A stretch of 19,353 nt of DNA from a virus (lineage: Duplodnaviria; Heunggongvirae; Uroviricota; Caudoviricetes): IMG/VR virus record IMGVR_UViG_2690316316_000017, positions 1 through 19,353 of that record. One strand, given 5' to 3'. Each line of letters opens with the position of its first letter. Position 1 is the stretch's first letter. A model generated the notes under the pieces. The model saw nothing but the letters and a program-made list of their open reading frames with translations. It was not told where the DNA came from and did not search any database. Made by a program: the position numbers and the translations under genes. This document shows, one piece after another, positions 1 through 17,083 of the stretch.

Positions 1-168
1 TCAAGCATTATGCAGGCTGTTTCTTTTTATCACCGGCCACAGCAATACCACAATGCCGCAGACCAGCACCCCATCCGCCAGCACCGACATGATTCTGGTG
101 GTGAAATCCACCATCACCACCAGAAACAGCAGGAGTGCAGCCACAGCCAGGCGCAGTTTTACCGTCAC
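1..168 (-). CDS. small hydrophobic protein, about 55 aa, probable membrane peptide (GTG start)
   Basis: Hand translation of the minus strand: GTG at 168-166 overlaps the TGA stop of the upstream TerB-like gene (GTGA), GGAG lies about 10 nt upstream, and the product VTVKLRLAVAALLLFLVVMVDFTTRIMSVLADGVLVCGIVVLLWPVIKRNSLHNA is strongly hydrophobic. Not in the ORF track (below size cut-off, non-ATG start). The track ORF 8..295 is a different frame. Confidence 0.3.
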   Translation of the reverse strand: MTVKLRLAVAALLLFLVVMVDFTTRIMSVLADGVLVCGIVVLLWPVIKRNSLHNA

Positions 169-596
169 AGGTGATTCTCCAGACGAAGACCCAGAACACC
201 GGCAATCTCTTCCAGCACCTTGCGCTCTTCCGGCTCAATTTCGCCGTCTGCCTCCGCAATGGCCACCGCCACATCCAGCACATCTTCCGCTTCACGCGTA
301 TCGTGTTTCACATCCTCAATCTCGCGTAACGCGGCACGACGACCAATTTTAAAATTGGTATCCAGCTGACCGATAATGGTTGCGCTAATCGCATTAATTT
401 CCGAGGTAAACGCAGACAACGCAGGCTGATTACGTAAGACCTGTTCGATCTTCGCTTTCTCGGATGCCTCGCATTCACCATCTGCATAGGCCACCAGGTA
501 TGCAGCGTTAATCACCGCCTGTGCCAGATCGCGTTTCTCAAACTTTTTAATTTCCGCTGCCGCTCTGCGGGTTTTCTTTTTGAAGATTCCAAACAT
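165..596 (-). CDS. TerB-family (tellurite-resistance-like) protein, about 143 aa
   Basis: Track ORF 165..668 trimmed to the internal ATG at 596 (MFGIFKKK...), which has AGGAA 9 nt upstream. Two repeats of the acidic A-x-ADG-E motif (LVAYADGECEASE, IAEADGEIEPEE) are typical of the TerB fold. Family assignment is from motif recollection only. Confidence 0.55.
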   Translation of the reverse strand: MFGIFKKKTRRAAAEIKKFEKRDLAQAVINAAYLVAYADGECEASEKAKIEQVLRNQPALSAFTSEINAISATIIGQLDTNFKIGRRAALREIEDVKHDTREAEDVLDVAVAIAEADGEIEPEERKVLEEIAGVLGLRLENHL

Positions 597-765
597 CGTG
601 ACGTTCCTTTGGGTGGGTGAGCCAACGCCCGGGAGCGATCTGCCCACAGAGAAAGTCACACTGACCACTCCGTAAGCTCACCCCCGAAAGGCTCTGTGGT
701 TGATATGCGCCGGGCGTGGCGCAGATACAAAAAAGGCCCGCCGAAGCGAGCCTGGAAAATAAGTG

Positions 766-842
766 TGGCGCGTTGTAGTGGAGTCTAACCACTGACCGAT
801 TGCTTAGAAGGCAATTGCTCTGTCCGACTGAGCTAACAACGC
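766..842 (-). tRNA. tRNA-Arg (anticodon UCU), 77 nt, phage-borne
   Basis: Reverse complement GCGTTGTTAGCTCAGTCGGACAGAGCAATTGCCTTCTAAGCAATCGGTCAGTGGTTAGACTCCACTACAACGCGCCA folds as a cloverleaf: acceptor GCGTTGT/ACAACGC, D stem GCTC/GAGC, anticodon stem ATTGC/GCAAT with loop CTTCTAA, T stem AGTGG/CCACT, 3' GCCA. The T loop TTAGACT is non-canonical. Confidence 0.7.
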
Positions 843-922
843 ATGATGCTGATAATGGACCGCCACCGGGGACTCCGAATCTCGCACAGGGTGACGTTCT
901 TTCCTGATGAGCTAGTGGCGGT

Positions 923-998
923 TGGTGGCCCTTGCTGGATTTGAACCAGCGACCTGGCGATTATGAGTCACTCGCTCTCACCACTGAGCTAAAGGGCC
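923..998 (-). tRNA. tRNA with CAU anticodon, most likely tRNA-Ile2 (lysidine type, ileX/ileZ-like), 76 nt
   Basis: Reverse complement GGCCCTTTAGCTCAGTGGTGAGAGCGAGTGACTCATAATCGCCAGGTCGCTGGTTCAAATCCAGCAAGGGCCACCA: acceptor GGCCCTT/AAGGGCC, anticodon loop CTCATAA, T arm GCTGG-TTCAAAT-CCAGC, CCA end. Closely resembles E. coli tRNA-Ile2 as I recall it. Met versus Ile2 cannot be settled from the anticodon alone. Confidence 0.75.
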
Positions 999-1038
999 GA
1001 TAACATAATGATAACGTTACAGAATAAATTCAGCAATA

Positions 1039-2097
1039 TCACTCTCTCTTTCTGATTAAATTCTGTACATCCCTTGCGGTCTGCTCAAAACGTCCGGTCT
1101 CCAGCTCAACGCCAATTGCACGACGCCCCAGTGCATTCGCTGCTTTGACTGTCGAACCGGACCCCATGAAGAAATCTGCAACCAGGTCTCCCGGACGACT
1201 GCTGGCGGTAATCATTTGCCGCAACATATCTGCCGATTTTTCACAGGGATGTTTGCCCGGATAATACTGCACAGGCTTGTGCGTCCAGACATCCGTATAA
1301 GGAACGGCTGCCGATACGGAAAAATAACGCCGCAGTGATTTGTACTCTTCCAGCAGGCTGGCATACTGCCGGTTCAGCTCACTGTATGTGCTGACCAGTT
1401 GGTGATGTGGCTTTTCCAGTTCACCCCGCTGATGTTTCTCTTCTGCCACCCGGGCAAACAGCACCTGAAGTTTTCTGTAATCATCCTCGTTCGGTAACTG
1501 CCACTGGCTGGCACTGAACCAGTGCGACACCATGTTTTTCTTTCCTGTGGCATCCACAATCTGTTTTGCCGTTATCCCCAGAGCAGCACGCGCATCACGA
1601 AAGTAAGAAATCAGCGGGGCCATCACATGCTGTTTCAGTGCCCTGCCCTTCGCCTCATACCCGGCATCTTTCGGGCGATATGGCCCCTGGTAATGTTCAG
1701 CAAACAGAACGCGCTCTGTGGCAGGAAAATATGCGCGCAGACGTTCTTTATTACACCCATTCCAACGTCCGGACGGCTTCGCCCAGATGATATGGTTAAG
1801 CACGTTGAAACGTTCACGCATCATGATCTCAATATCAGATGCCAGGCGATGCCCACAGAACAGGTAAAGGCTTCCGGCAGGTTTTAACACCCGCCAGAAC
1901 TGGGCCAGACAGTGGTCCAGCCACTTAAGGTAATCTTCGTCCCCTTTCCACTGATTGTCCCAACCGTTGGGTTTCACCTTGAAGTAAGGCGGATCGGTAA
2001 CAATCAGGTCAATGGAATCATCAGGCAGGGACTGAATAAAATGCAGGCAATCAGCGTTGATTAAATCAACACTGTTTATTTTTACAGTATTTTTCAT
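1039..2097 (-). CDS. site-specific DNA methyltransferase (N6-adenine/N4-cytosine class, DPPY motif), likely orphan phage MTase
   Basis: 352-aa ORF with IVTDPPYF near the N-terminus and FMGSGST (FxGxG AdoMet motif) near the C-terminus, the order expected for beta-class amino-MTases. No adjacent restriction endonuclease gene. Confidence 0.8.
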   Translation of the reverse strand: MKNTVKINSVDLINADCLHFIQSLPDDSIDLIVTDPPYFKVKPNGWDNQWKGDEDYLKWLDHCLAQFWRVLKPAGSLYLFCGHRLASDIEIMMRERFNVLNHIIWAKPSGRWNGCNKERLRAYFPATERVLFAEHYQGPYRPKDAGYEAKGRALKQHVMAPLISYFRDARAALGITAKQIVDATGKKNMVSHWFSASQWQLPNEDDYRKLQVLFARVAEEKHQRGELEKPHHQLVSTYSELNRQYASLLEEYKSLRRYFSVSAAVPYTDVWTHKPVQYYPGKHPCEKSADMLRQMITASSRPGDLVADFFMGSGSTVKAANALGRRAIGVELETGRFEQTARDVQNLIRKRE

Positions 2098-2247
2098 GGA
2101 TCAGTAAGCGTAACTCTGGTAGGCTCACTCTGCTTTTGCGCTAAAGCAGTGGGCCGTGGTTCGCTTGTGACCAGTAAGCATGAGCGAATGGCTGGCAGGT
2201 GCTACCAACACCCACCAGCCGCCCATTTTCACAGCAGGAAACCGCCA

Positions 2248-2451
2248 TTACTGGCAGCGTCTGAATTTATTCCCGTACCCGCCGTTATCCTTCGCCAGAC
2301 CCGCCAGAACTAACTGAGTCAGTATTAACTGGCACTGGGCTTCGCTTACTCCGGTAGTTCTCGTCATCATGCGTGGCGTTACCCACTTTTCAGCAGGTAA
2401 GAAATGAAGGACTGCGGCGGCGGTTTCTGTCATATCTTGCTGTTTTATCAT
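2248..2451 (-). CDS. hypothetical small protein, about 67 aa, possible helix-turn-helix
   Basis: Track ORF 2248..2475 trimmed to the ATG at 2451, which has a purine-rich AAGGGAA upstream. First ORF after the putative late-operon terminator. Function unknown. Confidence 0.4.
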   Translation of the reverse strand: MIKQQDMTETAAAVLHFLPAEKWVTPRMMTRTTGVSEAQCQLILTQLVLAGLAKDNGGYGNKFRRCQ

Positions 2452-2573
2452 GTCTTTTTCCCTTCTGGTTAACATGACATACCAATAACTCTTGTCTAAA
2501 AAGCCAGCAAGATAAAAAGTCAGTATTCACGACCACCAGCGTGTTTACTGTACTGCACCAAGTTTACAGGTAC

Positions 2574-2594
2574 AAAAAACCGCTCGACGGCGGG
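2574..2594 (-). terminator. short intrinsic terminator on the minus strand (candidate tR'-like late-operon terminator)
   Basis: Minus-strand RNA CCGC-CGUCGA-GCGG followed by UUUUUU (plus-strand A6 at 2574-2579). The stem is only 4 bp, so it is weak. Confidence 0.35.
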
Positions 2595-2728
2595 TTTAAG
2601 CTGTGTGGCGAAGTAACCACTCTTAACAGATTAAGATAAAATTTGCGGACCGCGGTAATTTTTTTTGCTAAATTAAAGCCATATAAAAATAAGCCCCATA
2701 AGAAATTATTAGCATACTAAGGTTTAGC

Positions 2729-3670
2729 ATGGCTACTATTGCGCAATCAAAGAAACAAAAAAAACTTAAAATTGGTTTTTACACCAGCAGTTCTGGGACT
2801 ATCCGCAGCCATTCAGTTGCTAAGCAAGCAATTGAAAATCTGTATAATACTTGCGTAACCGTTACGAATAATCATTTTGATACCATCTATAGAAATAAAA
2901 AGTTAAAAATAGCTTTTATAAATAAAGATACAAAAGCTAAATATTTCTTCGGCTACATGTCATGCTCACGAGAAGAGTATCTCCTTCCTTATATTGGTGA
3001 TGAACACTGGAATGAGCACAACATACCACTAGATGATAAAAAATACATAGTCGAAAGAACCTATTTTTTATATTATTACGATAGTGATATTTTAATATTA
3101 ACTCAAAATCATCTTGGGCCGAAAGAATCGGATTTAGCTTATCTGCTTTACAGCCAGAGTGGTAATCCTGGAAATAACTTTGCATTCCAAGCCATCTGGA
3201 AAAAAGAGAGCGTCAAAGAGCTACTTGAAACAGGAAGTACTTTGAGAAGTTGTGATATTGTCCTGGCTGCTCCCAGGAACTTTGATGCAACAAATTACCA
3301 GCTAAATAGTTCATTTTCTAAGGAACTGGTAAATATGATGGTAGGGCTGGGTGGAACACGTCTCAAGTTAAATCTAAGGGGACGTGCATCAGGGAGAGTA
3401 AAAGTCAAAGGTTATTTATCAGATCTCGTTAAGGATGGTATTAAAGAACTCCTTGAAAAAATGCCGGGAATTGTAAAAAAAGCGGCAGTAACACAGCCCA
3501 AAAATACCGTTGAACAAAGTCTTCTTGATCAGGTACTCATTTCAGAAAAAAACATATATACCGTTAATGGTTATGGCACTGATAGTGATGTTCTGCAAGC
3601 CATGATTTCTGCTAAAATTGATAACAATGAATACCTTAAGCAATACGATATCAGCAAAAAGAAGGTATAG
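2729..3670 (+). CDS. hypothetical 313-aa soluble protein, first gene of the AT-rich two-gene cassette
   Basis: Long ORF with AAGG 6 nt upstream of the ATG. AT-rich codon usage unlike the flanking phage genes. Opposite strand to Q and the late genes. No catalytic motif recognised. Confidence 0.75.
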   Translation: MATIAQSKKQKKLKIGFYTSSSGTIRSHSVAKQAIENLYNTCVTVTNNHFDTIYRNKKLKIAFINKDTKAKYFFGYMSCSREEYLLPYIGDEHWNEHNIPLDDKKYIVERTYFLYYYDSDILILTQNHLGPKESDLAYLLYSQSGNPGNNFAFQAIWKKESVKELLETGSTLRSCDIVLAAPRNFDATNYQLNSSFSKELVNMMVGLGGTRLKLNLRGRASGRVKVKGYLSDLVKDGIKELLEKMPGIVKKAAVTQPKNTVEQSLLDQVLISEKNIYTVNGYGTDSDVLQAMISAKIDNNEYLKQYDISKKKV

Positions 3671-3673
3671 GAT

Positions 3674-4117
3674 ATGTTATTGAAATACTTAAGAAACCTG
3701 ATTGTAAGTGTTTTTTGCACCTTGTTCCTACTGAGGTATATCCCTCAGATGGGGCATGCTGACATACTTACAGCCTCCGGGGTTATTTCAACTGTATCCG
3801 GTATTTTATTTGGTTTTATTTTAGCCACAATATCAATTTTTAGTGCTGCTAGCGAAAACTCAAATGGAATAATAAAAGCATTAAAAAACAACAACATACT
3901 TCAAGTTATTATTGTAAATCTATTAACCGCAGGTGCATCTTTAATTACGGCATGCGTTATTGCTTTGATAGCAATGTTTGCCAATGAAAAGACATTGTTA
4001 CATGGAGAAAAAATAGAATTTATTTTAATTATCGAATCGTTATCTCTTCTTATCATTTCAGTAATAACTTTTGCCTTTACATGGAGAAAAGTAAACTGGA
4101 TACTCCCCCACATTTAA
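3674..4117 (+). CDS. hypothetical 147-aa multi-pass membrane protein (3-4 predicted TM helices), second gene of the cassette
   Basis: Starts 4 nt after the upstream stop. Hydrophobic stretches LIVSVFCTLFLL, ILTASGVISTVSGILFGFILATISIFSAA, ILQVIIVNLLTAGASLITACVIALIAMF, IEFILIIESLSLLIISVITFAFTW. Ends directly at the terminator. Confidence 0.7.
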   Translation: MLLKYLRNLIVSVFCTLFLLRYIPQMGHADILTASGVISTVSGILFGFILATISIFSAASENSNGIIKALKNNNILQVIIVNLLTAGASLITACVIALIAMFANEKTLLHGEKIEFILIIESLSLLIISVITFAFTWRKVNWILPHI

Positions 4118-4140
4118 AAAGGGCAGAAATGCCCTTTTTT
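4116..4140. terminator. bidirectional rho-independent terminator between the cassette and Q
   Basis: AAAAAGGGCA-GAAA-TGCCCTTTTTT: perfect GC-rich stem flanked by an A-run and a T-run, abutting the cassette stop (4117) and the Q stop (4141). Confidence 0.7.
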
Positions 4141-4503
4141 CTACTCCATTTCAAGTTTAACATCCAGCATTGAAAGGCATCCATCAATAAACCCTTCAGC
4201 CATCTGTATCTCTATACGTATCAATTTCTCATCTTTTTTGCGAGCTCTTGCAAGCTTTCTTTTCGAGATGCCATACAGGTAATGGGCCACAATCAAAGAA
4301 TGCTCGTACGGTTTTCGCTTTTTAAGAAGAGCAAGACAACCTTCAATAATTAATGCATCACTATCTGAACAAGCCTGACGTGTTTTGCTTGTATAGGGAA
4401 GAAGCCCTTTAAACCCAGCAGCTATAGGAGAATAGTCTACTCCTGAACTATCACTCGCCGCCCATGCTCCCCAACGATCCAGAACCATTTGAATATCACG
4501 CAT
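4141..4503 (-). CDS. late-gene antitermination protein Q (short QuuD-like type), about 120 aa
   Basis: N-terminus MRDIQMVLDRWGAWAA... matches my recollection of DLP12 QuuD-type Q proteins. The track ORF starts at TTG 4518; the ATG at 4503 has GGAG 8 nt upstream. Sits at the end of the nin-like region, as Q does. Confidence 0.75.
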   Translation of the reverse strand: MRDIQMVLDRWGAWAASDSSGVDYSPIAAGFKGLLPYTSKTRQACSDSDALIIEGCLALLKKRKPYEHSLIVAHYLYGISKRKLARARKKDEKLIRIEIQMAEGFIDGCLSMLDVKLEME

Positions 4504-4520
4504 CAACTTTCTCCACAAAA

Positions 4521-5510
4521 TCAGGCCAGCACGCCAATTGCCAGCGCACGATCGATAAAACGAAATATCAGCTCCAGCTGGGAGCCATACTTCTCTTCAA
4601 ATGCCACGGTATCCGCATGCAGCTCGTCGTGATGCTTTCTGCACAAAGGCAACACAAAGAGGTCATGCGCTTTTGTTCCCATTCCACCCTGACCGTGACC
4701 TATCAGGTGGTGGGGATCATCAGCGGGCTTTCCACAACATGCACACGGCTGTGTCTTAACCCAGCGCGTGTACTTTTCATTAACCCAGCGGCGACGTTTT
4801 GGGCGTAACATAAAAGACTCCGGCGACTCCGGATCCACTTTCAGCGCCAGCACCTTTTTCGCCTTATCCTGGATGATGCTGGTGGCAGGAACCGAAGGCA
4901 CAAGGTCACTTTCCCGGGTAACAGACGGCACAACAGGCTTCGGTAATCTCAGTGCCTTACGGGCTGCACTTTCCGGTAAGGCATCCGCCAGATCATTACG
5001 AATCAGCCACCAGCACAGTTCCGGCATTGTCACAACGTGACTGTCATCAAAACCGAGATCCCGACGCACAACAGACAACACCCAGCGGGCACAGTTATCC
5101 GTTGCCATTGATTCCAGCCGTTCCGTGAACTGATCGCGCAGCTGGTTATCGCAGTGCCAGCACAGACGGATTGCACCCGGAGCGTGTCGCATTGTGGTCA
5201 TGTTCTCGCTGTGCCAGTCGGAATGAGGCCACTGGCAGCCTTTTTCACGAAGTAACCAGCTTTCAAGACATTCCACGCCACCAGCACGACGGATCACTGC
5301 CTCATTGCGGAACACGGCCCGAACGGCAGGATCATCCGCCAGCGGTTGTGATGCCGCCGGAACGGCACCACTGGCGAAAGATGAATAACGCTCCGGCTCA
5401 GGCTCCAGCAGGACACGCCCCTGCATAAACAGGGGCATCAGCTCTGAACCTGGCCTGAACAATACGATCCCCATACGCGGGGCAATTTCAGGGGTCAGTA
5501 GTGCTCTCAC
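4521..5510 (-). CDS. DUF968-like phage protein (putative nuclease domain)
   Basis: C-terminal Cys/His-rich block (CACCGKPADDPHHLIGHGQGGMGTKAHDLFVLPLCRKHHDELH) resembles the DUF968 signature of lambdoid nin-region proteins. GTG start; exact start uncertain between 5516 and 5510. Confidence 0.65.
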   Translation of the reverse strand: MRALLTPEIAPRMGIVLFRPGSELMPLFMQGRVLLEPEPERYSSFASGAVPAASQPLADDPAVRAVFRNEAVIRRAGGVECLESWLLREKGCQWPHSDWHSENMTTMRHAPGAIRLCWHCDNQLRDQFTERLESMATDNCARWVLSVVRRDLGFDDSHVVTMPELCWWLIRNDLADALPESAARKALRLPKPVVPSVTRESDLVPSVPATSIIQDKAKKVLALKVDPESPESFMLRPKRRRWVNEKYTRWVKTQPCACCGKPADDPHHLIGHGQGGMGTKAHDLFVLPLCRKHHDELHADTVAFEEKYGSQLELIFRFIDRALAIGVLA

Positions 5511-5517
5511 GGTCACC

Positions 5518-6327
5518 TCAATGAACGGTATCGAGCAGCTTTAACAGCTCAGGGAATCGGGATTCGAAGAAATGCGGCTGCGTCTCGCGCGGATTTGCGG
5601 GACTGGTGATGTTCTTGCCGAACATGCAGCCTTTCGCTGTCAGCGACCAGAATTTTTTGATGTTGTTAATCGCGGTACGACTGTATCGTTCGCGCTGCTC
5701 GACGATCCCCAGTTTCACCATCTGGTGATATGCCTGATTAGCCGTCAGGCGTATACCATACTGTTTCAGCAGTGCACTCAGTGACAGTGTCGGGCGACTT
5801 GAGCCATCGTGTGCATCAGCAGGAGCATCAATGGCATAGCGCGGTGCCAGATTCGGTAAGCCAACAGCCTCCTGGAGTTTCTGACAGGCACCAAGCACAG
5901 ATGAGTTAGACAGGTTTAACTCCCGACGCATAAAGTCCAGCAGAATCACACCAGCCTGCATCTTGTCAGCAGCCTGTCCGGATAATTTTTCCGGTGCGCT
6001 GGTTACCATGTCGAAAGTACGGATCACCTTAAGATGGAATGACGGGCTTATCCACATTGCATAGGCATACACCAGTTCTTTGCAGACATACGTTCCCCGT
6101 TCATTTCCCCCATGAATCACACTCACCGGGTCAACACCCAAATTCTGGGTGTTGGTCAATTCATGAACAAGTTCAACAGTTTGTTGGCTGGAAAGAAACT
6201 TTCCTGGCTCCTTGGTTCTGGCATTTGCACCAGATGCTACTGCTGCGCGATGTAGATCGTTCAGGCTGTAACGCCCATAAACATCACGACGAACTTCAAT
6301 ACCATCAATGACCATCAGATTATTCAT
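5518..6327 (-). CDS. KilA-N domain antirepressor-like protein (Roi/Ant-like)
   Basis: N-terminal KilA-N-like block (...GTYVCKELVYAYAMWISPSFHLKVIRTF...). Start taken at the ATG at 6327 (MNNLMVIDG...), which has AGGAG 9 nt upstream, rather than the GTG used by the track. Confidence 0.7.
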   Translation of the reverse strand: MNNLMVIDGIEVRRDVYGRYSLNDLHRAAVASGANARTKEPGKFLSSQQTVELVHELTNTQNLGVDPVSVIHGGNERGTYVCKELVYAYAMWISPSFHLKVIRTFDMVTSAPEKLSGQAADKMQAGVILLDFMRRELNLSNSSVLGACQKLQEAVGLPNLAPRYAIDAPADAHDGSSRPTLSLSALLKQYGIRLTANQAYHQMVKLGIVEQRERYSRTAINNIKKFWSLTAKGCMFGKNITSPANPRETQPHFFESRFPELLKLLDTVH

Positions 6328-6346
6328 ACTTCGTTTCTCCTCTTGA

Positions 6347-6736
6347 TCAGGCGGCTGCACCCGCCGTTTTCTCGTACTTACTGATAGTGATCTCGACCTT
6401 CCCTTTCGGGATAACCGGTCCCCACTCCACCAGCATTCTTTTCACCTGACTGTCGTCTTCCCACACACCCGCGTGGGTCAGGGCGTCAAACAGCGCCTTG
6501 TTATAGTTGTCCAGATCGCGGATCCTGTTATCCGGAGGAAACAACACGATCTCCACTGAAGCAGGTGCCGACGTTGGTTTCGGCAGACGACGTAACTGCT
6601 CAATGATGGCGGCACACGCCGCGCTCTGAAATTTTCGCCCCGCCTCGCTTATCAGGCTCTTACCAGCAAATGCCCCTTTGTTGGGGTGTCGCCAGTACGT
6701 GTTCACGCTGGGCGGAAAAGGCAGTATTAGCTTCAT
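6347..6736 (-). CDS. rusA: RusA-family Holliday-junction resolvase (crossover junction endodeoxyribonuclease)
   Basis: 129 aa with N-terminal MKLILPFPPSVNTYW and acidic residues in the DLDNYNKALFDAL block, typical of RusA. ATGA overlap with the upstream MTase stop. Confidence 0.85.
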   Translation of the reverse strand: MKLILPFPPSVNTYWRHPNKGAFAGKSLISEAGRKFQSAACAAIIEQLRRLPKPTSAPASVEIVLFPPDNRIRDLDNYNKALFDALTHAGVWEDDSQVKRMLVEWGPVIPKGKVEITISKYEKTAGAAA

Positions 6737-7386
6737 GCCACCATCTCCCTGACCAGTTTTTCCGCCTGCTGGCGAACCTGCGCCAGAAATGCCTCACCAC
6801 ATGCCTCAAGTTCATCGCGCCCGATGTAGCTGATTGCCGGTCCCTTCCAGGTCTTGTCGAAAACAGCAATAGCACCAGCGAAGAAAGCACCTGTTGGCAC
6901 CTGCTTTTCGTCTTTCGGGATAAACCAGGCAGGCAGTTCAAAACCAATACGCCCGCGAATAAAAGCAATATGATCTGCACCTTCCGGCCACCACACTTCG
7001 CCGGTGGCAGCTTTGATCAGGAAAACATAGCGCCCGCCTTTATCACGCATGGCACTGGCATGCTTCATGATGTAACGCATGCCGGTGATGTATTGCCCCT
7101 CATGCTGACTGGCGCGGCTGTACGGGGGATTGCCAAAGGCAGCACCTTTAAGCTCCGCAAGACGTTCTGACCAGTCATGCGCCAGCGCGTTGTCTTCCGC
7201 CGTGTAATACGCGGCACATTTGGCGTTATCACCGTCAGTGAACAGATCCAGAACAAACGGACCAAACAAGGTGTTAATTCCCCAGAAAATGTTGTCCGGC
7301 GTGCGCCACTGATCGCCCACTTCCTTCAGTTCATGGGCTGGTTTGTTCCGCAGTTCTACCAGCGCCTGGCAATATTTATTACTCAT
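6733..7386 (-). CDS. phage Dam-like N6-adenine DNA methyltransferase
   Basis: 217 aa with the catalytic motif NPPY (GAAFGNPPYSRA), matching the phage N-6-adenine-methyltransferase family. Lies between the replication gene and rusA, as in other lambdoid phages. Confidence 0.8.
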   Translation of the reverse strand: MSNKYCQALVELRNKPAHELKEVGDQWRTPDNIFWGINTLFGPFVLDLFTDGDNAKCAAYYTAEDNALAHDWSERLAELKGAAFGNPPYSRASQHEGQYITGMRYIMKHASAMRDKGGRYVFLIKAATGEVWWPEGADHIAFIRGRIGFELPAWFIPKDEKQVPTGAFFAGAIAVFDKTWKGPAISYIGRDELEACGEAFLAQVRQQAEKLVREMVA

Positions 7387-7478
7387 TAAGCCCCCACGTA
7401 AAAAGCATCCGCAATGTCTCCGGAAGTACAGCCCGGATGGGCTTCAATGAATTTCTGAACGTCATTTAACAGACTCAT
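7386..7478 (-). CDS. possible 30-aa small protein, translationally coupled on both sides
   Basis: Hand translation: ATG at 7478 preceded by AGGGGGTGA, product MSLLNDVQKFIEAHPGCTSGDIADAFYVGA. Its TAA overlaps the MTase ATG (TAATG) and its start lies 5 nt after the replication-gene stop. Not in the ORF track. Confidence 0.3.
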   Translation of the reverse strand: MSLLNDVQKFIEAHPGCTSGDIADAFYVGA

Positions 7479-7480
7479 GA

Positions 7481-8473
7481 TCACCCCCTGAATCCTGCCG
7501 GGATCTGGCTGTAGTCCACGTTGTCGTAACTGGCTTTGAAGTACGGGTCTTCACGTTTTTCTGTGTGCGTGCTGACGGACGGCGATAAGCGCAGGGAAAG
7601 CTCATCCCATTTTTCCCGCAACTTCGACGGGCTGAGCACGTTACGGCACCAGAACGGATCGCGGCTGACGCGGCTGTACATCTCGCAGATTTGTTTGTGA
7701 GTACGACCATCCTGCACACACATCAGGCGAATTTCGTTTGCCCATGCTGTCCAGTTCGGTTCTTTGGGACGAACCACCTCGCCGTCACATTCGGCGGCCT
7801 GCTCGTACAGGGCGATGATTTTTTTCCAGAGCCACTGTGCGCAGGTCAAATCATCCTGCGTTCCCCACTGGCGCTTTTTAGGGCTGAATACAACCGCATC
7901 AGGATGGCGAGTTAAAAACTCCTGTTCAGCCGTTTGCGTGTCCGGTTGCGAAGCGTCCGGACGAGAAGAGGTTTTATTCTCTGTAGTAATCTCTGTTGTA
8001 TTCTCTGTAAGATCATTGGGCCATTTTGACCCGATGACAGCGTGTCGTTTTGAACCAATGGATCGTATCATTTTGCGCCCATCCATCAGGTCACTTTGAC
8101 CCGATGGAGAAGTGCATTTTGACCTGATGGATTCGTTCACTTTGACCTCTTCTAAAAGCTCACTTTCATAGTTGATCGTGTAGAAGTTGGTCATGTCACG
8201 CTTCGATTTATTGAGTTGCTCGCGACGCAAAACCCCAAGTGATTTCAGGCTTGCAAATGTGCGTTTCAGAGTGGACTCTGACCAGAACGGAAACTGCTCC
8301 AGCCACTGTTCTGTCGTGTTATAAACCCAGCGAATTCCGCCATGCTCAGTGCCTGAATTCGTTTCATTCAGCCAGTAATGAAGCTGCTGCAACACAATTG
8401 CCTCATTCAGACCAATACGGCATGCAAGATCACGATTTATCACAATGGGCTGGGATGTCATTAACAGGCTCAT
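7481..8473 (-). CDS. replication initiator protein (O-like, origin-binding) with internal iteron origin
   Basis: 330-aa ORF directly downstream of the cro operon. AGAGG 6 nt upstream of the ATG. Contains an iteron array inside the coding sequence, as lambda O contains ori. Family assignment is by position and architecture, not by recognised motif. Confidence 0.7.
   Translation of the reverse strand: MSLLMTSQPIVINRDLACRIGLNEAIVLQQLHYWLNETNSGTEHGGIRWVYNTTEQWLEQFPFWSESTLKRTFASLKSLGVLRREQLNKSKRDMTNFYTINYESELLEEVKVNESIRSKCTSPSGQSDLMDGRKMIRSIGSKRHAVIGSKWPNDLTENTTEITTENKTSSRPDASQPDTQTAEQEFLTRHPDAVVFSPKKRQWGTQDDLTCAQWLWKKIIALYEQAAECDGEVVRPKEPNWTAWANEIRLMCVQDGRTHKQICEMYSRVSRDPFWCRNVLSPSKLREKWDELSLRLSPSVSTHTEKREDPYFKASYDNVDYSQIPAGFRG
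8019..8150. repeat. iteron array (putative phage replication origin) inside the replication initiator gene
   Basis: Six direct repeats of about 17 bp, consensus TCAYTTTGACCYGATGG, at about 23-bp spacing (8021, 8046, 8068, 8091, 8114, 8137), flanked at 7975-8012 by the repetitive tract attctctgtagtaatctctgttgtattctctgtaag. Confidence 0.6.
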
Positions 8474-8642
8474 GACCGACCTCTATTTCCCTGAATTTAC
8501 GACGAAACTGTTCGAGCGGGCTGAAGCACTCATGCTCATAGCCTTCGCGGAGGTAGATAACCCGTTGTGTTTCCGGTTCCCAACGAATGACTCTGACGGG
8601 CACTCCGTAGTGATCTTTGAACCAGCGGTTAACTTGTCGCAA
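8430..8642 (-). CDS. hypothetical 70-aa protein (TTG start), overlaps the YmfM-like frame and the replication gene start
   Basis: Track ORF with a TTG start that has AAGGAG 8 nt upstream. Product is a balanced charged/hydrophobic sequence ([54 protein letters not shown]...). Overlaps 8483..8821 in another frame, so at most one frame is coding across 8483-8642. Confidence 0.3.
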
Positions 8643-8821
8643 AGGACTGTCTCCTTCTGCCGGTTGAAATCACCCACAGCCCACTCTGCAAAGCTGTGGG
8701 TTACAATTTCCCTGTCACCTGGTACATTTACTGCATAGCAATACTCCACCTTCGCTTTTCCACCCGGTACAGGAAGCGCAATCAGTTGCGAGCGACGGTA
8801 GTGTGTTGTTAAACTGTTCAT
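8483..8821 (-). CDS. YmfM-like protein (e14-type early gene), 112-aa ORF as drawn
   Basis: ATGA overlap with the upstream YmfL-like stop. Position and length match e14 ymfM as I recall it. The C-terminal 50 residues are low-complexity (S/A-rich) and overlap the better-looking TTG ORF, so the true 3' end is uncertain. Confidence 0.4.
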
Positions 8822-9402
8822 GCGTTAGTTTCTCCACAACCAGAAGCAATCGACGCCACGACGCCCGGAGCTGCACACTCGCGGGCGTTACTCTTTTCCG
8901 GCGCACAAAAAACACGAAATAACAGTGTTAAATGCTCCTGCCACTTCGCCATTACTTGGTAGCTGTTCTCTTCGATTTGCTCACGCTCAGCCTGGTCAAT
9001 AACTCCATCAGCAGTTGCCTTGCGTAAGTACTGGGAATGCTTGCCAATCCATTCTATTGACTCCATCAGCCGCTGATTAATGTCACCATTGTCAATGTCA
9101 TCAATGACCACCAGCGGCACAAACACCCCATTACTACGACGGGCTATTGCATCTGTTACATGCCTGGTACCACTGGCATCCTGTAAAACCATGGCCCACT
9201 CAAGTGGAAAAATTTGATCCCCACCGCTACGCAGTCTGTTATGCAATTGATCTTTTGCTGGGGTGATATCATCAGATTTATACAAACCAAGAATTTCTGC
9301 TGCTTCCTCATAGCCATGAGGTAAATCAGCAATCGTTCTTCGTATTGCTGCCACCAGCCATGCTGGTTGTTTATCAACTTTCCATTCAGGTTCTTTACCC
9401 AC
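8818..9402 (-). CDS. YmfL-like early protein (e14-type, putative regulatory), 194 aa, GTG start
   Basis: Long ORF directly downstream of cro. GTG at 9402 has GAGGAA 6 nt upstream. Size and position match e14 ymfL (recollection). Confidence 0.6.
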
Positions 9403-9429
9403 GGTTAATTCCTCATTTCTGTGGTGTTT

Positions 9430-9627
9430 TTATGCCGCAGCACTGTTAGTCTTTTGATATAAAGACACGTCAACTTTCAGTTTCCCGTTAGTAATTTTTT
9501 CTAACTGGTACGCTCGGCCTTCAGGAATAATCTCAGGCCACTCTGAAACAGACGGATGCTTAATACCTAGGGCTTCGGCGGTTTTACAAACTCCGCCGAA
9601 ATAATTAATCACGTCGGATTTCCGCAT
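9430..9627 (-). CDS. Cro-like HTH repressor, 65 aa
   Basis: Small ORF divergent from cI. GGGAGA 5 nt upstream of the ATG. HTH-like segment FGGVCKTAEALGIKHPSVSEW. Sits immediately downstream of the PR-like promoter and operator. Confidence 0.75.
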   Translation of the reverse strand: MRKSDVINYFGGVCKTAEALGIKHPSVSEWPEIIPEGRAYQLEKITNGKLKVDVSLYQKTNSAAA

Positions 9628-9654
9628 TTCTGTCTCCCGTTAAATTACGTTAAG

Positions 9655-9722
9655 CAGAAATGTAGGATATCCAACATGCCAATGTCAAGAATCCTACATG
9701 GGCATGTGGTAGGATTGCCTAC
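9655..9722. promoter_or_regulatory. OR-like operator/promoter region (PR for cro on the minus strand, PRM-like for cI on the plus strand)
   Basis: Operator TGTAGGATATCCAACATG (9661-9678) plus inverted half-site copies ATCCTACA (9691-9698) and GGTAGGATT (9709-9717). On the minus strand, TTGACA - 18 bp - TACATT with the operator in the spacer. cI ATG at 9723 has almost no leader. Confidence 0.6.
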
Positions 9723-10376
9723 ATGATGAACATGAGTGATCGTATTCGCCAAAGGCGAAAAGAACTGAACCTGACACAACAAGCACTGGCTGATTTGACT
9801 GGTGTGAACCGTGTCACGGTTACTGGATGGGAAAAGGACGACTACCAACCAAATGGAGCCAACCTTCAAGCCCTAGCCAACGCACTTAAATGCGATCCTC
9901 TGTGGCTTGTTAGCGGAAAAGGCTCGCCTGAACCAAAGATAAATCTAAAACCTGAAATATTCGCAGTTAAAAAAGTCCCCCTAATCTCGTGGGTTCAGGC
10001 GGGTTCATGGACAATGACGGAGCCTGGTGTCAGGAAAGAAGATGCTGAAGAGTGGGTTTATACTACCGCCCTTGTATCAGAAATGGCATTTGCACTACGG
10101 GTCCGTGGTGATTCAATGACCAATCCCCTCGGCTCACCATCGATACCAGAAGGTTCTATCGTTATCGTAGAGCCAGATATTATTGATACAGAGTGTATTA
10201 ACGGAAAAATCGTTGTTGCCCATATCAATGGTGGGCAAGAAGCGACACTCAAAAAATTTGTTGAGGACTGGCCGAACAGGTATCTCGTCCCACTAAATCC
10301 TAACTATAAAACTATTGAATGCGGTGAGAACTGCAGAATAGTTGGTCTTGTCAAACAAGTAATAATGGATTTTTGA
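9723..10376 (+). CDS. cI-type prophage repressor (HTH_XRE N-terminal domain plus LexA-like S24 autopeptidase domain)
   Basis: 217 aa. HTH LTQQALADLTGVNRVTVTGWE. Catalytic Ser in RVRGDSMTNP and Lys in GQEATLKKF, the Ser-Lys dyad of SOS-cleavable repressors. Divergent from cro. Confidence 0.9.
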   Translation: MMNMSDRIRQRRKELNLTQQALADLTGVNRVTVTGWEKDDYQPNGANLQALANALKCDPLWLVSGKGSPEPKINLKPEIFAVKKVPLISWVQAGSWTMTEPGVRKEDAEEWVYTTALVSEMAFALRVRGDSMTNPLGSPSIPEGSIVIVEPDIIDTECINGKIVVAHINGGQEATLKKFVEDWPNRYLVPLNPNYKTIECGENCRIVGLVKQVIMDF

Positions 10377-10396
10377 CACATCTTCCTCACTATCGC

Positions 10397-10422
10397 AAAA
10401 CCGGGGTATCCCCGGTTTTTTT
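10397..10422 (+). terminator. rho-independent terminator after cI
   Basis: AAAACCGGGG-TAT-CCCCGG-TTTTTTT beginning 21 nt after the cI stop. Confidence 0.7.
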
Positions 10423-10439
10423 ATGAGCCTATCTTTTTA

Positions 10440-10495
10440 TGTAGGATAACCAACATAAACTCTTGACACTCACATGTTGGATATCCTACATTTGT
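10440..10495 (+). promoter_or_regulatory. OL/PL-like operator-promoter module driving the plus-strand early operon
   Basis: TGTAGGATAACCAACAT (10440-10456) and inverted ACATGTTGGATATCCTACA (10472-10490) bracket TTGACA (10463-10468); -10 candidate TACATT (10487-10492) with 18-bp spacer. Almost identical to the PR module. Confidence 0.6.
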
Positions 10496-10650
10496 TTTTA
10501 GAGTTGTGGTGAATGCGCAGGCTGATGCGCGAAAGACATTGCAGCTATTGCGGAAAAGAGCTGTTCGGCGGGGCAATTAAACGCCCGTGAGAGTCTGAAA
10601 TAACCGCAAGCCGGAGATCAGCACCGGTCACCACAACAGCCACTGCTTTG

Positions 10651-10698
10651 GCGGTACCAGTTTGTACACTTGCTTCCGGCTGGTACCGCTCTTTTTAC
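10651..10698 (+). terminator. terminator-like hairpin in the PL leader, followed by a boxA-like motif
   Basis: GCGGTACCAG - 19 nt - CTGGTACCGC (perfect 10-bp arms) followed by TCTTTTT. The T-tract is part of GCTCTTTTTACAA, which resembles the boxA consensus. Confidence 0.4.
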
Positions 10699-10833
10699 AA
10701 AACAGAGAAGAGCATCACCGGACGACGGGCTCATAACCCAATCCATCCGGGCGGCTGCCACCGCAGGTGTTCTTCTCTGTTTTGTGGAGAAACCAACCGA
10801 CCTTACAGGGTCGATATGATGAGGAGCAGCAAA

Positions 10834-11196
10834 ATGGCTAGCGAACGCAGTACTGATGTGCAGGCATTTATCGGGGAGCTGGACGGCGGCGTATTTGAAA
10901 CCAAAATCGGCGCTGTTCTCAGTGAAGTCGCTTCCGGTGTGATGAACACGAAAACCAAAGGTAAGGTCTCGCTCAACCTGGAAATCGAACCGTTTGATGA
11001 GAACCGTGTGAAAATCAAACACAAACTCTCATATGTTCGCCCGACTAACCGCGGGAAAATTTCTGAAGAAGACACCACCGAAACGCCGATGTATGTCAAT
11101 CGCGGTGGTCGCCTGACTATTCTGCAGGAAGACCAGGGACAATTACTGACTCTTGCCGGTGAACCTGACGGAAAACTCCGCGCAGCAGGTCATTAA
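10834..11196 (+). CDS. hypothetical early protein, 120 aa (YfdP-like by position and size)
   Basis: Track ORF 10648..11196 trimmed to the ATG at 10834 (MASERSTDVQ...), which has GAGGAG 7 nt upstream. First gene after a 330-nt leader. Size matches K-12 yfdP from memory. Confidence 0.55.
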   Translation: MASERSTDVQAFIGELDGGVFETKIGAVLSEVASGVMNTKTKGKVSLNLEIEPFDENRVKIKHKLSYVRPTNRGKISEEDTTETPMYVNRGGRLTILQEDQGQLLTLAGEPDGKLRAAGH

Positions 11197-11261
11197 TATC
11201 GTTCTTAATTAACTGATTATTTATCTCATCACTGAATATCTTTATATAGTGAGGACTTATT

Positions 11262-12086
11262 ATGTCTCAGAACTTAGACGCAACCGCAATTAATCAAATC
11301 CATGCCCTTATTTCTGCTCAGGGTGTTAATGAAATTATCAGTAAGATTGGTGCCGATGCTGTGGCATTGCCTGAGAATTTCCGCATTCATGATCTGGAAA
11401 AATTTAATTTAAATCGCTTCCGTTTCCGTGGTGCGCTTTCCACTGCCAGTATCGATGACTTTACCCGTTATTCTAAAGATCTTGCAGATGAAGGCACCCG
11501 CTGCTTTATCGATGCCGATAATATGCGTGCCGTCAGTGTGCTTAACCTGGGTACTATTGATGAACCAGGTCACGCAGATAACACCGCCACTCTCAAACTG
11601 AAAAAGACAGCACCGTTCTCTGCCCTGTTGTCTGTTAACGGCGAGCGTAACTCCCAGAAATCACTGGCAGAATGGATTGAAGACTGGGCCGACTACCTTG
11701 TGGGCTTTGATGCTAATGGTGACGCCATTCAGGCAACAAAAGCGGCGGCGGCAATCCGTAAAATCACGATTGAAGCAAACCAGACCGCTGATTTTGAAGA
11801 TAATGACTTCAGCGGCAAACGCTCCCTGATGGAATCTGTCGAAGCGAAGACCAAAGACATTATGCCAGTGGCATTTGAATTTAAATGCGTTCCATTTGAA
11901 GGCCTGAAAGAACGTCCGTTTAAATTACGACTCAGCATTATCACTGGCGATCGTCCTGTACTGGTTCTGCGCATTATTCAGCTGGAAGCGGTGCAGGAAG
12001 AAATGGCTAACGAATTTCGTGATCTGCTTGTTGAGAAATTCAAAGACAGCAAAGTAGAAACCTTTATTGGTACTTTCACCGCCTGA
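11262..12086 (+). CDS. yfdQ: YfdQ-like protein (DUF2303 family), 274 aa
   Basis: GAGGA 6 nt upstream of the ATG. Length equals K-12 yfdQ as I recall it and it sits directly upstream of an HD-domain gene, the KplE1 yfdQ-yfdR arrangement. Symbol is by synteny and size, not alignment. Confidence 0.55.
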
Positions 12087-12098
12087 TTTCATTACTGC

Positions 12099-12122
12099 AA
12101 ATGCCCCTGCGGGGGCATTTAT
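12099..12122 (+). terminator. intra-operon hairpin (possible attenuator/weak terminator) after the yfdQ-like gene
   Basis: ATGCCCC-TGCG-GGGGCAT (7-bp GC-rich stem) followed by TTTAT; the T-tract is short. Confidence 0.35.
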
Positions 12123-12214
12123 GGAAACGTAATTAACTCAATAATCACCGGATGGTGAGGGCTTCCTTTTACCAGAATTCAGTGCGGTGCAGCGCAAATA
12201 ACGTGGAGAACAAA

Positions 12215-12751
12215 ATGTCATTTATTAAAACTTTTTCTGGGAAGCATTTTTATTATGACAGGATAAATAAAGACGACATCGTTATTAACGATATCGCGGT
12301 TTCCCTTTCAAATATCTGTCGCTTTGCAGGACATCTTTCACACTTCTACAGCGTCGCCCAACATGCGGTTCTTTGCAGCCAACTGGTACCGCAGGAATTT
12401 GCTTTTGAAGCGTTAATGCATGATGCAACAGAAGCATATTGCCAGGACATCCCCGCACCACTGAAACGCCTTCTTCCTGACTATAAACGGATGGAAGAAA
12501 AAATAGACGCCGTAATCCGTGAGAAATACGGGTTACCTCCTGTTATGAGCACGCCAGTGAAATATGCCGATCTCATTATGCTGGCAACCGAACGCCGCGA
12601 TCTCGGGCTTGATGATGGCTCTTTCTGGCCTGTACTGGAAGGTATCCCGGCGACAGAGATGTTCAAAGTTATTCCACTGTCACCAGGCCATGCCTACGGG
12701 ATGTTTATGGAACGTTTTAACGAGTTATCGGAGTTACGCAAATGCGCATGA
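12215..12751 (+). CDS. yfdR: HD-domain phosphohydrolase, YfdR-like 5'-deoxynucleotidase, 178 aa
   Basis: Track ORF trimmed to the ATG at 12215, which has GGAGA 5 nt upstream. HD metal-binding motifs H (SVAQHAV) and HD (ALMHDATEAY). Length equals K-12 yfdR (recollection). Confidence 0.7.
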   Translation: MSFIKTFSGKHFYYDRINKDDIVINDIAVSLSNICRFAGHLSHFYSVAQHAVLCSQLVPQEFAFEALMHDATEAYCQDIPAPLKRLLPDYKRMEEKIDAVIREKYGLPPVMSTPVKYADLIMLATERRDLGLDDGSFWPVLEGIPATEMFKVIPLSPGHAYGMFMERFNELSELRKCA

Positions 12752-13104
12752 ATGTTTTCGAAATGGAAGGGGTTCTTCGCGGGAAATGTGTACCGCGAGA
12801 TCTGAAAGTGAACGAAACAAATGCTGAGTACCTGGTACGTAAATTCGATGCGCTTGAAGCTAAATGTGCGGCACTGGAAAACAAAATAATACCAGTGTCA
12901 GTTGAACTGCCACCAGCAAATGAAAGTGTTCTGTTATTTGATGCTAACGGAGAAGGCTGGCTAATTGGCTGGCGTTCTCTCTGGTACACCTGGGGACAAA
13001 AAGAAACCGGAGAATGGCAGTGGACATTTCAGGTCGGGGACCTTGAAAACGTCAATATCACTCACTGGGCAGTAATGCCGAAAGCACCGGAGAATAAGAA
13101 ATGA
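12742..13104 (+). CDS. YfdS-like protein with DUF551-like C-terminal region, 120 aa
   Basis: GGAG 8 nt upstream of the ATG. C-terminal W-rich block GEGWLIGWRSLWYTWGQKETGEWQW...THWAVMP resembles the C-terminus of the 396-aa protein at 15001..16191. Confidence 0.6.
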   Translation: MRMNVFEMEGVLRGKCVPRDLKVNETNAEYLVRKFDALEAKCAALENKIIPVSVELPPANESVLLFDANGEGWLIGWRSLWYTWGQKETGEWQWTFQVGDLENVNITHWAVMPKAPENKK

Positions 13105-13304
13105 GCGTGATAAAAACTCATACAGGAATTGTTATCACCCGAGACGGTCCGCAGGTAAAAAAACTGCACCAGACAAAGCGGATGTGGGTCGTCGGAAAAA
13201 ACGAGTTTTACCACAAAGAAACCGGACGCCGCCACTTTGCAGAAAATACGCGCCGCCGACTGCTGATCGACAGCATCAAGCCTATCGAGGTGATGCATGT
13301 TTAA
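13101..13304 (+). CDS. hypothetical small basic protein, 67 aa
   Basis: ATGA overlap with the upstream stop; GGAGA 7 nt upstream of the ATG. Confidence 0.5.
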   Translation: MSVIKTHTGIVITRDGPQVKKLHQTKRMWVVGKNEFYHKETGRRHFAENTRRRLLIDSIKPIEVMHV

Positions 13305-13536
13305 CCAGAACGAAAAATCTATCGCTCAAATTGCTGAGTATATCCCACGTGCGTGCCGGGGTATGCAGTTGCAGGAAGCCAAAGCGCGCCTGGAGAAAAA
13401 AATTGCGCTCTATATCGATGACGGCTGTGATGCTGCCGTTCTTAACGCAGCGTTCGCGCCAGCTCTTAACAGTCATACGCGGGAGTCTTTTTTTTCGCGC
13501 ATCGCAGCGCAGATCCGTAAAGGAGGCAACCAGTGA
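13297..13536 (+). CDS. hypothetical protein, 79 aa
   Basis: ATG with GAGGTG upstream; overlaps the upstream stop by 8 nt and the next gene by GTGA. Confidence 0.5.
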   Translation: MFNQNEKSIAQIAEYIPRACRGMQLQEAKARLEKKIALYIDDGCDAAVLNAAFAPALNSHTRESFFSRIAAQIRKGGNQ

Positions 13537-14231
13537 GCGAGATTAACTATCAGGCTCTGCGACTGGCGGCAGAAAATGCAACACCAGGCGAATGGTGTGC
13601 TGATGACTACCATGGAGTAATTGCCGATGCCGGACTGAACGCCAATTACTACATAGCATCATGCTCAGGACCGGATAATCGCTCCAATAAACGATTCATA
13701 GCCGCAGCCAATCCGGCTACCGTGCTGGCACTGCTGGATGAGAACGAAAGCATGTGCCGCGACCTCATTGCTCGCAATGGTGAGATTGAAGGGCTTCGAA
13801 AACTGGTTGCTGAACTTGAGGAGACAAAATCAAAACTCAACGAGCAGCGTGAATATTACGAAGGTGTTATCTCGGATGGAAGTAAGCGTATTGCTGAACT
13901 GGAGAAAAGCGAAGAGCAACTCATCAGCGAGCGTGATCATGCTGAGTCTGCTTTAGCTGATATGTATTTTGCAGCAACCGGGGATAGGCCGGAGTGGAGC
14001 AACTTGTTCGGCTTTTCAGATGCTGTAGATGCCGTGGTTGACAGAATTGCTGATTTAGAAGCTAAACAGCCATCGCCAGTAGTACCGGAAGGACTGATTA
14101 AAGCGGTGCGTTTTTATGAGCAGGTAAAACGTGAGAACCCGCCAGTCGAAACCGGAGCATGGAAAGACGCTGTTGACTGGGTGCTCAAAGAGGCTTGCCC
14201 GGCTGTAAACATTGGCATCAAAGGAGAGTGA
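13533..14231 (+). CDS. Ea22-like coiled-coil early protein, 232 aa (GTG start)
   Basis: GTG at 13533 has AAGGAGG 6 nt upstream. N-terminus MSEINYQALRLAAENATPGEW resembles ead/Ea22-like proteins (recollection). Central region is heptad-like and charged. Confidence 0.55.
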   Translation: MSEINYQALRLAAENATPGEWCADDYHGVIADAGLNANYYIASCSGPDNRSNKRFIAAANPATVLALLDENESMCRDLIARNGEIEGLRKLVAELEETKSKLNEQREYYEGVISDGSKRIAELEKSEEQLISERDHAESALADMYFAATGDRPEWSNLFGFSDAVDAVVDRIADLEAKQPSPVVPEGLIKAVRFYEQVKRENPPVETGAWKDAVDWVLKEACPAVNIGIKGE

Positions 14232-14233
14232 GA

Positions 14234-14725: not shown

Positions 14726-14726
14726 T

Positions 14727-14990
14727 ATGGCAACTTTGACAAAAAAGGAACAGGCATGGTTGAGCGAATTACAGAACGTTCTTGATCGCTGCCCGTCACC
14801 GAAAAAAATTGGTTTTTACACCATTGGCGATAAAAACATTTACCTGTATGACCTACGCCGCATGGATGAAATCATGGAGGCTCTTGATAATCGTTCGTCA
14901 ATGGATTGGTGTGTTGCTGTCCATGATATGAATGCCGGATTTGAAGAAAAGATTTTGTTCCCCTCGTCAGTTGAAAGCACAGCGGGTTAA
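14727..14990 (+). CDS. hypothetical protein, 87 aa
   Basis: ATG 1 nt after the upstream stop, with the SD supplied by the junction repeat. Confidence 0.55.
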   Translation: MATLTKKEQAWLSELQNVLDRCPSPKKIGFYTIGDKNIYLYDLRRMDEIMEALDNRSSMDWCVAVHDMNAGFEEKILFPSSVESTAG

Positions 14991-15000
14991 GGAGTAACAC

Positions 15001-16763: not shown

Positions 16764-16799
16764 TTTTCCCGGGTGCAGCCGGTTTTGATGGAGAAAATT

Positions 16800-17081: not shown

Positions 17082-17083
17082 AG

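Follow-up and report, generated by a model that had tools for sequence, protein, structure and literature searches.

A TerB-fold protein and its small hydrophobic partner in the late operon of lambdoid prophages, with a probable structured leader RNA

What does a TerB-domain protein do in the late region of a tailed phage, and is the short hydrophobic open reading frame (ORF) overlapping its stop codon a gene at all? Both questions are raised by one end of a DNA stretch of 19,353 nucleotides (positions 1 to 19,353 of the IMG/VR virus record IMGVR_UViG_2690316316_000017, Caudoviricetes), the whole of which is here called the window and which is 100% identical to a lambdoid prophage of Escherichia coli fS25a. 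The initial annotation, made from the letters and the translated frames, described a coupled unit of TerB domain and membrane peptide, and suggested that it could be moron cargo, or host sequence at a prophage boundary. The gene pair is the phage tciA/tciB module, named first in phage P1, and as such it is already known and widely annotated. It is also ordinary: many phages and roughly one in five complete E. coli genomes have it in their annotation. What gives it weight is that unrelated phage lineages retain the pair and that the TerB protein is under near-absolute purifying selection. To show what a minimal unit of TerB plus a membrane hairpin does would clarify the TerB domain of tellurite-resistance operons and of new anti-phage systems, and the leader RNA described below, which may be a new structured RNA family, is a testable handle on the expression of the unit.

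The gene pair, its products and its place in phage genomes

The pair fills the first 596 positions of the window, and all features within positions 1-1100 lie on the minus strand.

165-596, minus strand: tciA, TerB protein of 143 amino acids (aa); ATG at 596-594, TGA at 167-165
1-168, minus strand: tciB, DUF3927 protein of 55 aa; GTG at 168-166, stop codon at 3-1
165-180, minus strand: coupling junction GGAG-AATCACCT-GTGA, with the tciB Shine-Dalgarno sequence inside the end of tciA (sequence reading)

The tciA product is a soluble, acidic and cytoplasmic TerB-fold protein. It matches the Pfam family TerB (PF05099) over residues 26-138 (E-value 2.9e-16, 60.2 bits against a cutoff of 24.4), PHROG 632 over its full length (E-value 1.7e-69) and the structure of Klebsiella pneumoniae TerB, 2JXU_A, with residues 14-137 aligned to 20-144 (E-value 4.4e-8). 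The TerB fold suspected by the initial annotation for the 143-aa protein is thus borne out by profile search. A longer reading of 167 aa, starting with GTG at 668, was rejected, as relatives do not conserve it, and 143 aa is taken as the correct length. Hydropathy gives no segment of transmembrane grade in TciA, and the charge is unevenly distributed, the first 22 residues (MFGIFKKKTRR...) having a net charge of +7 and the remainder of -13. Two copies of an ADG...E motif are present (A38-D39-G40...E46 and D117-G118...E123-E124); in an alignment of 10 diverse homologs D39, E46, D117, E123 and E124 do not vary, and A38, G40 and G118 hardly do. A single-sequence AlphaFold2 model of TciA (predicted local distance difference test score 57) was too poor for use.

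The second gene, tciB, encodes a two-segment hydrophobic protein of the 50-60 aa size class, which matches Pfam DUF3927 (PF13064; E-value 3.9e-16, 59.2 bits, cutoff 25) and PHROG 1470, 'TciB-like' (E-value 5.1e-29). At positions 168-165 of the minus strand the sequence reads GTGA, so that the tciB start and the tciA stop share 4 nt, and GGAG at 180-177 lies 8 nt 5' of the GTG. The small hydrophobic ORF, too, is as first described: it has 55 aa, and begins with a GTG overlapping the TerB stop. It contains hydrophobic segments at residues 5-20 (Kyte-Doolittle hydropathy 2.83) and 26-47 (2.39). They are separated by DFTTR, and the net charge is +2 at either terminus. TciB is predicted to be a membrane hairpin of N-in/C-in topology with both ends in the cytoplasm. 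Residues conserved in the aligned enterobacterial and P1/N4-like versions are the D21-F22-T23 turn, D32 and W44-P45. RefSeq annotates exactly these two coding sequences at the 100%-identical locus.

Conservation was followed in 99 loci whose TerB relative is full-length and at least 40% identical, a redundant set in which 54 haplotypes and 32 TciB proteins are distinct. The start codon of the small gene overlaps the TerB stop in 97 of them (GTGA in 86, ATGA in one, TAATG or TGATG in 10); the overlap has either the 4-nt or the 1-nt form, across genera, and ATG starts of tciB are found in other genera. An intact TciB homolog of 50-63 aa is present in 92 of the 99 loci, and in 3 it is disrupted. 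By both counts the overlapping pair is, as had been proposed, conserved in relatives. The pairwise (Nei-Gojobori) ratio of non-synonymous to synonymous substitution rates (dN/dS) of tciA has medians of 0.064, 0.040 and 0.019 in bins of rising dS, and one example pair differs by 1 non-synonymous vs 45 synonymous changes (dN/dS about 0.005-0.02). For tciB the ratio is about 0.4, the changes clustering, by inspection, in the C-terminal tail. Both tciA and tciB are real genes, and the TerB protein is under extreme purifying selection, a constraint unusually strong for an accessory phage gene.

Lambdoid prophages have tciAB in their late operon, downstream of Q and ahead of the holin gene. The order on the minus strand is cro...O...RusA, KilA-N, DUF968, Q, late leader, a 67-aa ORF, a DNA methyltransferase gene, tRNAs, a terminator, tciA and tciB, and past tciB, outside the window, follow STnc100, the convergent AgvB, an esterase, holin, lysozyme, Rz, terminase, head and tail genes. 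The esterase, ahead of the holin, has DUF1737-SASA-DUF6645 domains. The late-side location given in the initial annotation, downstream of Q and on the same strand as the lysis genes of a lambdoid prophage, was correct.

4141-4506, minus strand: antiterminator Q of 121 aa (Pfam Phage_antitermQ, E-value 4.6e-52; Pfam and RefSeq)
2574-2629, minus strand: late-leader segment of 56 nt with a terminator at its end (GCCGUCGAGCGGU, then U6), probably tR' (terminator scan and comparison)
923-998, minus strand: tRNA with anticodon CAU (Met in ARAGORN; Ile, ileX-like, in RefSeq)
766-842, minus strand: tRNA-Arg with anticodon UCU (ARAGORN and RefSeq)
734-753, minus strand: intrinsic terminator AGGCUCGC-UUCG-GCGGGCCU, then U6, between tRNA-Arg and the leader of tciA (terminator scan)

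The 56-nt segment is read as late leader and tR' because it is also found upstream of holin genes, in identical form ~120 bp upstream of the holin gene essD in prophage DLP12 of E. coli K-12, and also upstream of the holin in strain M11957. The terminator at 734-753 folds with -14.6 kcal/mol (z-score -5.0) and its stem variants in relatives are compensatory; a scan of the interval from this terminator to the tciA start gave no sigma-70-like promoter. Over 728-766 (minus strand) the hairpin is conserved with its compensatory stem variants and the sequence 5' of it varies. By analogy it may be compared with the published prophage small RNA (sRNA) PasA, which has a conserved 3' end, is cut from a longer transcript and lies near TerB and tRNAs. 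The tRNA at 923-998 is probably an ileX-type tRNA-Ile2, like trnI of P1, which likewise adjoins tciABC.

The late region of Shiga toxin (Stx) phages (Q - tRNAs - stxAB - nanS-p esterase - holin) has an equal gene order, differing in that tciA-tciB and the leader RNA stand in place of stxAB; tciAB occupies the stx slot, inside the prophage and on its late side. The segment with tRNAs and methyltransferase shares 83-96% identity with Stx2c phages and phiP27. No terZ, terA, terC, terD or terE gene was found within 20 kb on either side of the pair.

The 596-bp unit was found in 1145 of the 5426 complete E. coli genomes, and a carrier genome has it in a median of 4 and a maximum of 10 places. The annotation in E. 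coli is nearly always 'tellurite resistance TerB family protein' next to 'DUF3927 family protein', and some phage records label the genes tciA/tciB after P1. In Pantoea, Franconibacter, Pseudescherichia, Enterobacter and an Enterobacterales genome the pair is located between DUF968/Q and holin-lysozyme-Rz. Strictly lytic N4-like phages carry it as well, gp27 and gp28 of phage Pollock being among the early/middle genes. In jumbo phages of Erwinia and Salmonella tRNA-Trp and tRNA-Cys are followed by a TerB gene (68-76% identical) and, after a gap of 3 nt, by a gene for a 59-60 aa hairpin protein which retains only the hydrophobic pattern and LVWPxIK. The DUF3927 family itself is small: a profile search of 1.84 billion representative proteins yielded 112 clusters at 50% identity; a word-index search with TciB retrieved near-identical E. 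coli proteins only.

The initial annotation had found a TerB protein unexpected next to phage tRNAs. This did not hold, since the order tRNA-tciA-tciB recurs in P1, E. coli prophages, jumbo phages and other genera and is routinely annotated. Among 20 species-level loci tRNA genes adjoin the pair in 5. Direct adjacency was seen in at least four unrelated phage groups (the jumbo phages L233-L236, P1 as L109, and the loci L012, L003 and L019). In Pollock (L110, 4059-4411) a group I intron (RF00028, 101 bits) lies ~450 bp downstream of tciB.

The closest known counterpart is tciABC of P1. Its TciA has 141 aa and is 42% identical, its TciB is a DUF3927 protein of 54 aa whose gene starts at the stop of tciA, the operon is flanked by tRNA genes, including a tRNA-Ile2 (CAT) right after tciC, and the DNA methyltransferase gene dmt lies upstream. 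In contrast to the window, P1 has a third gene, tciC, for a single-helix peptide of 35 aa; the window has no TciC-like ORF, and STnc100 is found at that place. In addition, the P1 genes belong to the C1-controlled ban operon, whereas the pair in the window belongs, by gene order, to a Q-dependent late operon, and the covariance model described below detects no leader RNA in P1.

The leader RNA upstream of tciA

Between the terminator and tciA a segment of ~130 nt is conserved: positions 600-699 show zero differences among alleles whose coding sequence is ~10% diverged.

597-726, minus strand: structured 5' leader RNA of tciA, ~130 nt (conservation, covariance model, compensatory changes)

The proposed structure consists of a hairpin P0, a helix A (CCACAGAG/CTCTGTGG), an inner hairpin P3 and a pairing between the P0 loop and a downstream GGGCG (P1). 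The Shine-Dalgarno sequence of tciA, AAAGGAA, is at 610-604, adjoined by the invariant pair GGGUGAGC/GCUCACCC. The leader is recognizable in other genera and stands also ahead of the P1-like type of TciA, the protein of which is only ~42% identical. A pattern scan of viral contigs returned 119 instances, nearly all directly 5' of a TerB ORF or its remnant.

A covariance model (R1) was built from 28 sequences. It gives 145 bits at the window leader, 87 bits in an Enterobacterales genome and 56-70 bits between tRNA-Cys and TerB in four jumbo phages. It also scores 80 bits upstream of an HNH endonuclease gene past the lysis genes of another prophage (L116, 6923-7062), and a second, weak copy (37 bits) is found ahead of a 246-aa late ORF (L016, 6479-6596). 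No leader was found with the model in P1, Pollock or phage 434. No family of Rfam 15 matched positions 597-726 at E<=10, terminator-only and noise matches aside.

The helices are kept while their sequence changes. The P0 stem is GCGCC/GGCGC in the window and CUGUC/GACAG, CACAUC/GAUGUG or CACAC/GUGUG in jumbo phages, and helix A changes from CCACAGAG/CUCUGUGG in the window to CCGUAGAG/CUCUACGG in the jumbo-phage copies. The P0 loop CGCCC pairs with the downstream GGGCG; this pairing, which lies outside the model, covaries at two positions (C-G/G-C and C-G/U-A/A-U), and an H-type pseudoknot is therefore indicated. In the model-guided alignment 95.3% of cells pair, vs 33-51% with the partners slid, and changes on both sides occur in 17 of the 32 pairs vs 6.1 +/- 1.6 in shuffles (0 of 500), figures to be read with the caveat that the alignment was fitted to three of the helices and that the sequences are related to one another. 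The helix GGGUGAGC/GCUCACCC is only plausible, because it shows no compensating variation and one U-to-G change breaks a pair in 4 of the 24 aligned leaders.

Several other readings of the segment were rejected. As a promoter it fails, since there was no sigma-70-like match in the scan and no sigma-54-like one by eye; the many G-U pairs and the compensatory changes argue for an RNA of the sense strand rather than a promoter. A leader peptide starting from GTG or ATG after the Shine-Dalgarno-like GGGGGUGA, which in the window is in frame as the 167-aa reading, was discarded because the start codon and the frame are lost in many relatives, and an apparent 'circularly permuted' copy of the leader motifs turned out to be the reverse complement of the same element. 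On the comparative evidence we regard it as highly probable that the leader is a real structured RNA. More tentatively, and with somewhat less than even confidence, it may belong to a class of cis-acting phage RNAs not described before, which would govern how the TerB-membrane peptide unit, and occasionally another late gene, is translated or how stable its message is, possibly via a ligand or the ribosome.

Two further observations concern the leader. Noticed post hoc, its invariant 3' element looks like the 16S rRNA 3' end, and the partner of this element like an extended Shine-Dalgarno sequence. In some viral contigs an insert of ~2.5 kb fits precisely between the leader and the start codon of tciA (L054/L055, leader at 1331-1463 vs tciA at 4001).

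Possible function and competing explanations

The reading which we prefer, and which we hold to be somewhat better than an even chance as an overall skeleton, is that a membrane-anchored TerB complex is made in lytic growth and protects or guards the inner membrane; the protective role is its weakest step. TciA and TciB would be made together via translational coupling. TciB would insert as an N-in/C-in hairpin and hold TciA against the inner membrane on its cytoplasmic side, perhaps with help from the basic, amphipathic N-terminus of TciA, as canonical TerB acts at the membrane with TerC, the product of the next gene. In this prophage expression is expected mostly in lytic growth, once Q-modified RNA polymerase passes the terminators, and the leader RNA may then set tciA translation or mRNA stability. 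The complex could keep the inner membrane of the phage-producing cell intact or closed until programmed lysis, that is until the holin fires, and what it would act against might be DNA entry of superinfecting phages, pore-forming colicins or host defences that collapse the membrane or are abortive. The use of the pair in lytic programmes agrees with this (the C1-repressed ban operon of P1, the early/middle region of Pollock, the jumbo phages), and the divergent hairpin of 59-60 aa still located 3' of TerB in jumbo phages speaks in favor of the hairpin. Membrane association of TerB has been reported, and membrane surveillance has been proposed for TerB in the Bunzi, Shango and Dionysus systems.

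In the ter operon terB is followed by terC, a gene for a membrane protein. TciA aligns with the TerB of terZABCDE (K. pneumoniae 2JXU) over the whole length of the domain (E-value 4.4e-8) and shares the duplicated ADG...E motifs, whereas the window has no TerC, TerD, TerZ, TerA or TerE nearby, the partner is a 55-aa hairpin and not the multi-pass TerC, and the setting is a phage late operon. Shango SngA, Bunzi BnzA and Dionysus DinB likewise combine a TerB domain with membrane-associated components, for which surveillance has been proposed; unlike them, tciAB has no helicase, ATPase, MAEBL or four-helix pore-former and is carried by phages, including lytic ones. In PADLOC-DB 2.0 TciA had no significant match, the best being a partial one to PDC-S48 (E-value 0.0035, 14.5 bits over 35 residues), and TciB had no match. 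The N-terminal domain of E. coli DjlA and DUF533/YebE belong to the TerB clan and are membrane-tethered, and TciA has a weak, sub-threshold likeness to both (E-values 1e-6 for DjlA and 3.4e-5 for DUF533), but their anchor is fused to the TerB-like domain, whereas tciB is a separate coupled cistron, and TciA has no J domain.

Several facts weigh against this membrane-guarding complex. The PR' promoter was not located, and Q-dependence rests on the gene order. A literature search found no experimental work on the function of tciA or tciB, tellurite resistance included; the name tci was given by homology to ter operons, and one phage paper doubts a tellurite role for a solitary phage TerB. In P1 tciA, tciB and tciC were non-essential in a CRISPR interference (CRISPRi) screen, so any role of tciABC is accessory, and the operon is missing from about half of one P1 subgroup. 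No convincing natural fusion of TerB and DUF3927 was found among the 112 DUF3927 clusters; the few long matches look like chimeras or frameshifts, in which the N-terminus of a phosphatase or an ABC ATPase is joined to a TciB fragment. DUF3927 is also not always paired with TerB: in phage 434 its gene follows that of a 247-aa non-TerB membrane protein, which was rejected as a hidden TerB (hhalign probability 0.1%). Finally, the conserved Asp residues of TciB are absent from the jumbo-phage version, and for this reason an ion-binding role of TciB could not be generalized.

Of the competing explanations, the one that takes the small ORF for a chance frame, or the region for chromosomal host DNA beside the prophage end, has practically no probability left. 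The ORF is short, begins with GTG and lies at the very edge of the window, but its DUF3927 and PHROG matches, the purifying selection, the ATG starts elsewhere and the RefSeq annotation all contradict chance. The suggestion of host sequence at a prophage boundary is already refuted, as the pair is ~17 kb from the integration-side end and the same prophage continues past tciB with holin, lysozyme, terminase, head and tail genes. The moron proposal fared differently in its two parts. As to location it stood, the slot being the cargo slot equivalent to that of stx; as to lysogenic conversion, in which a repressed prophage would express the pair and the host gain a fitness trait such as resistance to tellurite, pore-forming colicins or other phages, it is doubtful, and we consider it unlikely. 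That a genome of pathogenic E. coli can have the pair in as many as 10 places, and that defence systems contain TerB domains, would suit conversion, yet a strong terminator lies directly upstream with no sigma-70-like promoter in the scan before the start, strictly lytic N4-like and jumbo phages carry the pair and have no lysogen to convert, and the P1 operon is C1-repressed in the lysogen. Moreover, the other ter genes, which one paper states to be necessary for tellurite resistance, are not nearby, and PADLOC finds no known defence system.

The remaining alternative reverses the roles, TciB being a membrane-damaging or holin-like effector and TciA its cytoplasmic sensor and regulator, the two tuning lysis timing or acting as an abortive or exclusion switch. 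A protein of this size with two hydrophobic segments, N-in/C-in charges and a basic C-terminal tail is typical of class II holins, and TciB matches in all these respects. In several genera tciB ends 100-250 bp upstream of the holin gene, and the Dionysus defence system pairs a TerB protein with a pore-forming membrane protein. All the same we judge this quite improbable: no holin or toxin family matches TciB (the Pfam scan gave no holin at E<=1), every such phage already has its own holin, and the pair of P1 and N4-like phages belongs to early/middle regions and not to the lysis cassette. Knock-down of tciA in P1 would leave a toxic TciB unchecked, but no plating defect was reported for it.

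Other features of the surrounding prophage

Immediately past the pair (L001, 19727-19993, just outside window position 1), the sRNA STnc100 (155.8 bits, minus strand) begins 8 nt after the tciB stop, and the anti-GcvB sRNA AgvB (96.5 bits, plus strand) converges on it. The variable C-terminal tail of tciB abuts a mosaic joint at STnc100/AgvB.

At 2729-4117, on the plus strand, a two-gene cassette encoding a DUF6731 protein of 313 aa and a protein of 147 aa is located between Q and the late leader. PADLOC gave no match for this cassette. The same spot contains a KAP NTPase, an SDH-family Clp-fold protease or other genes of unknown function in other E. coli genomes; it looks like a variable cargo hotspot, possibly for defence.

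The host prophage is probably defective. Its portal gene is frameshifted, and a DUF1327 gene between holin and lysozyme contains an IS66-family element (L001, 4396-6980 and 14305-17356).

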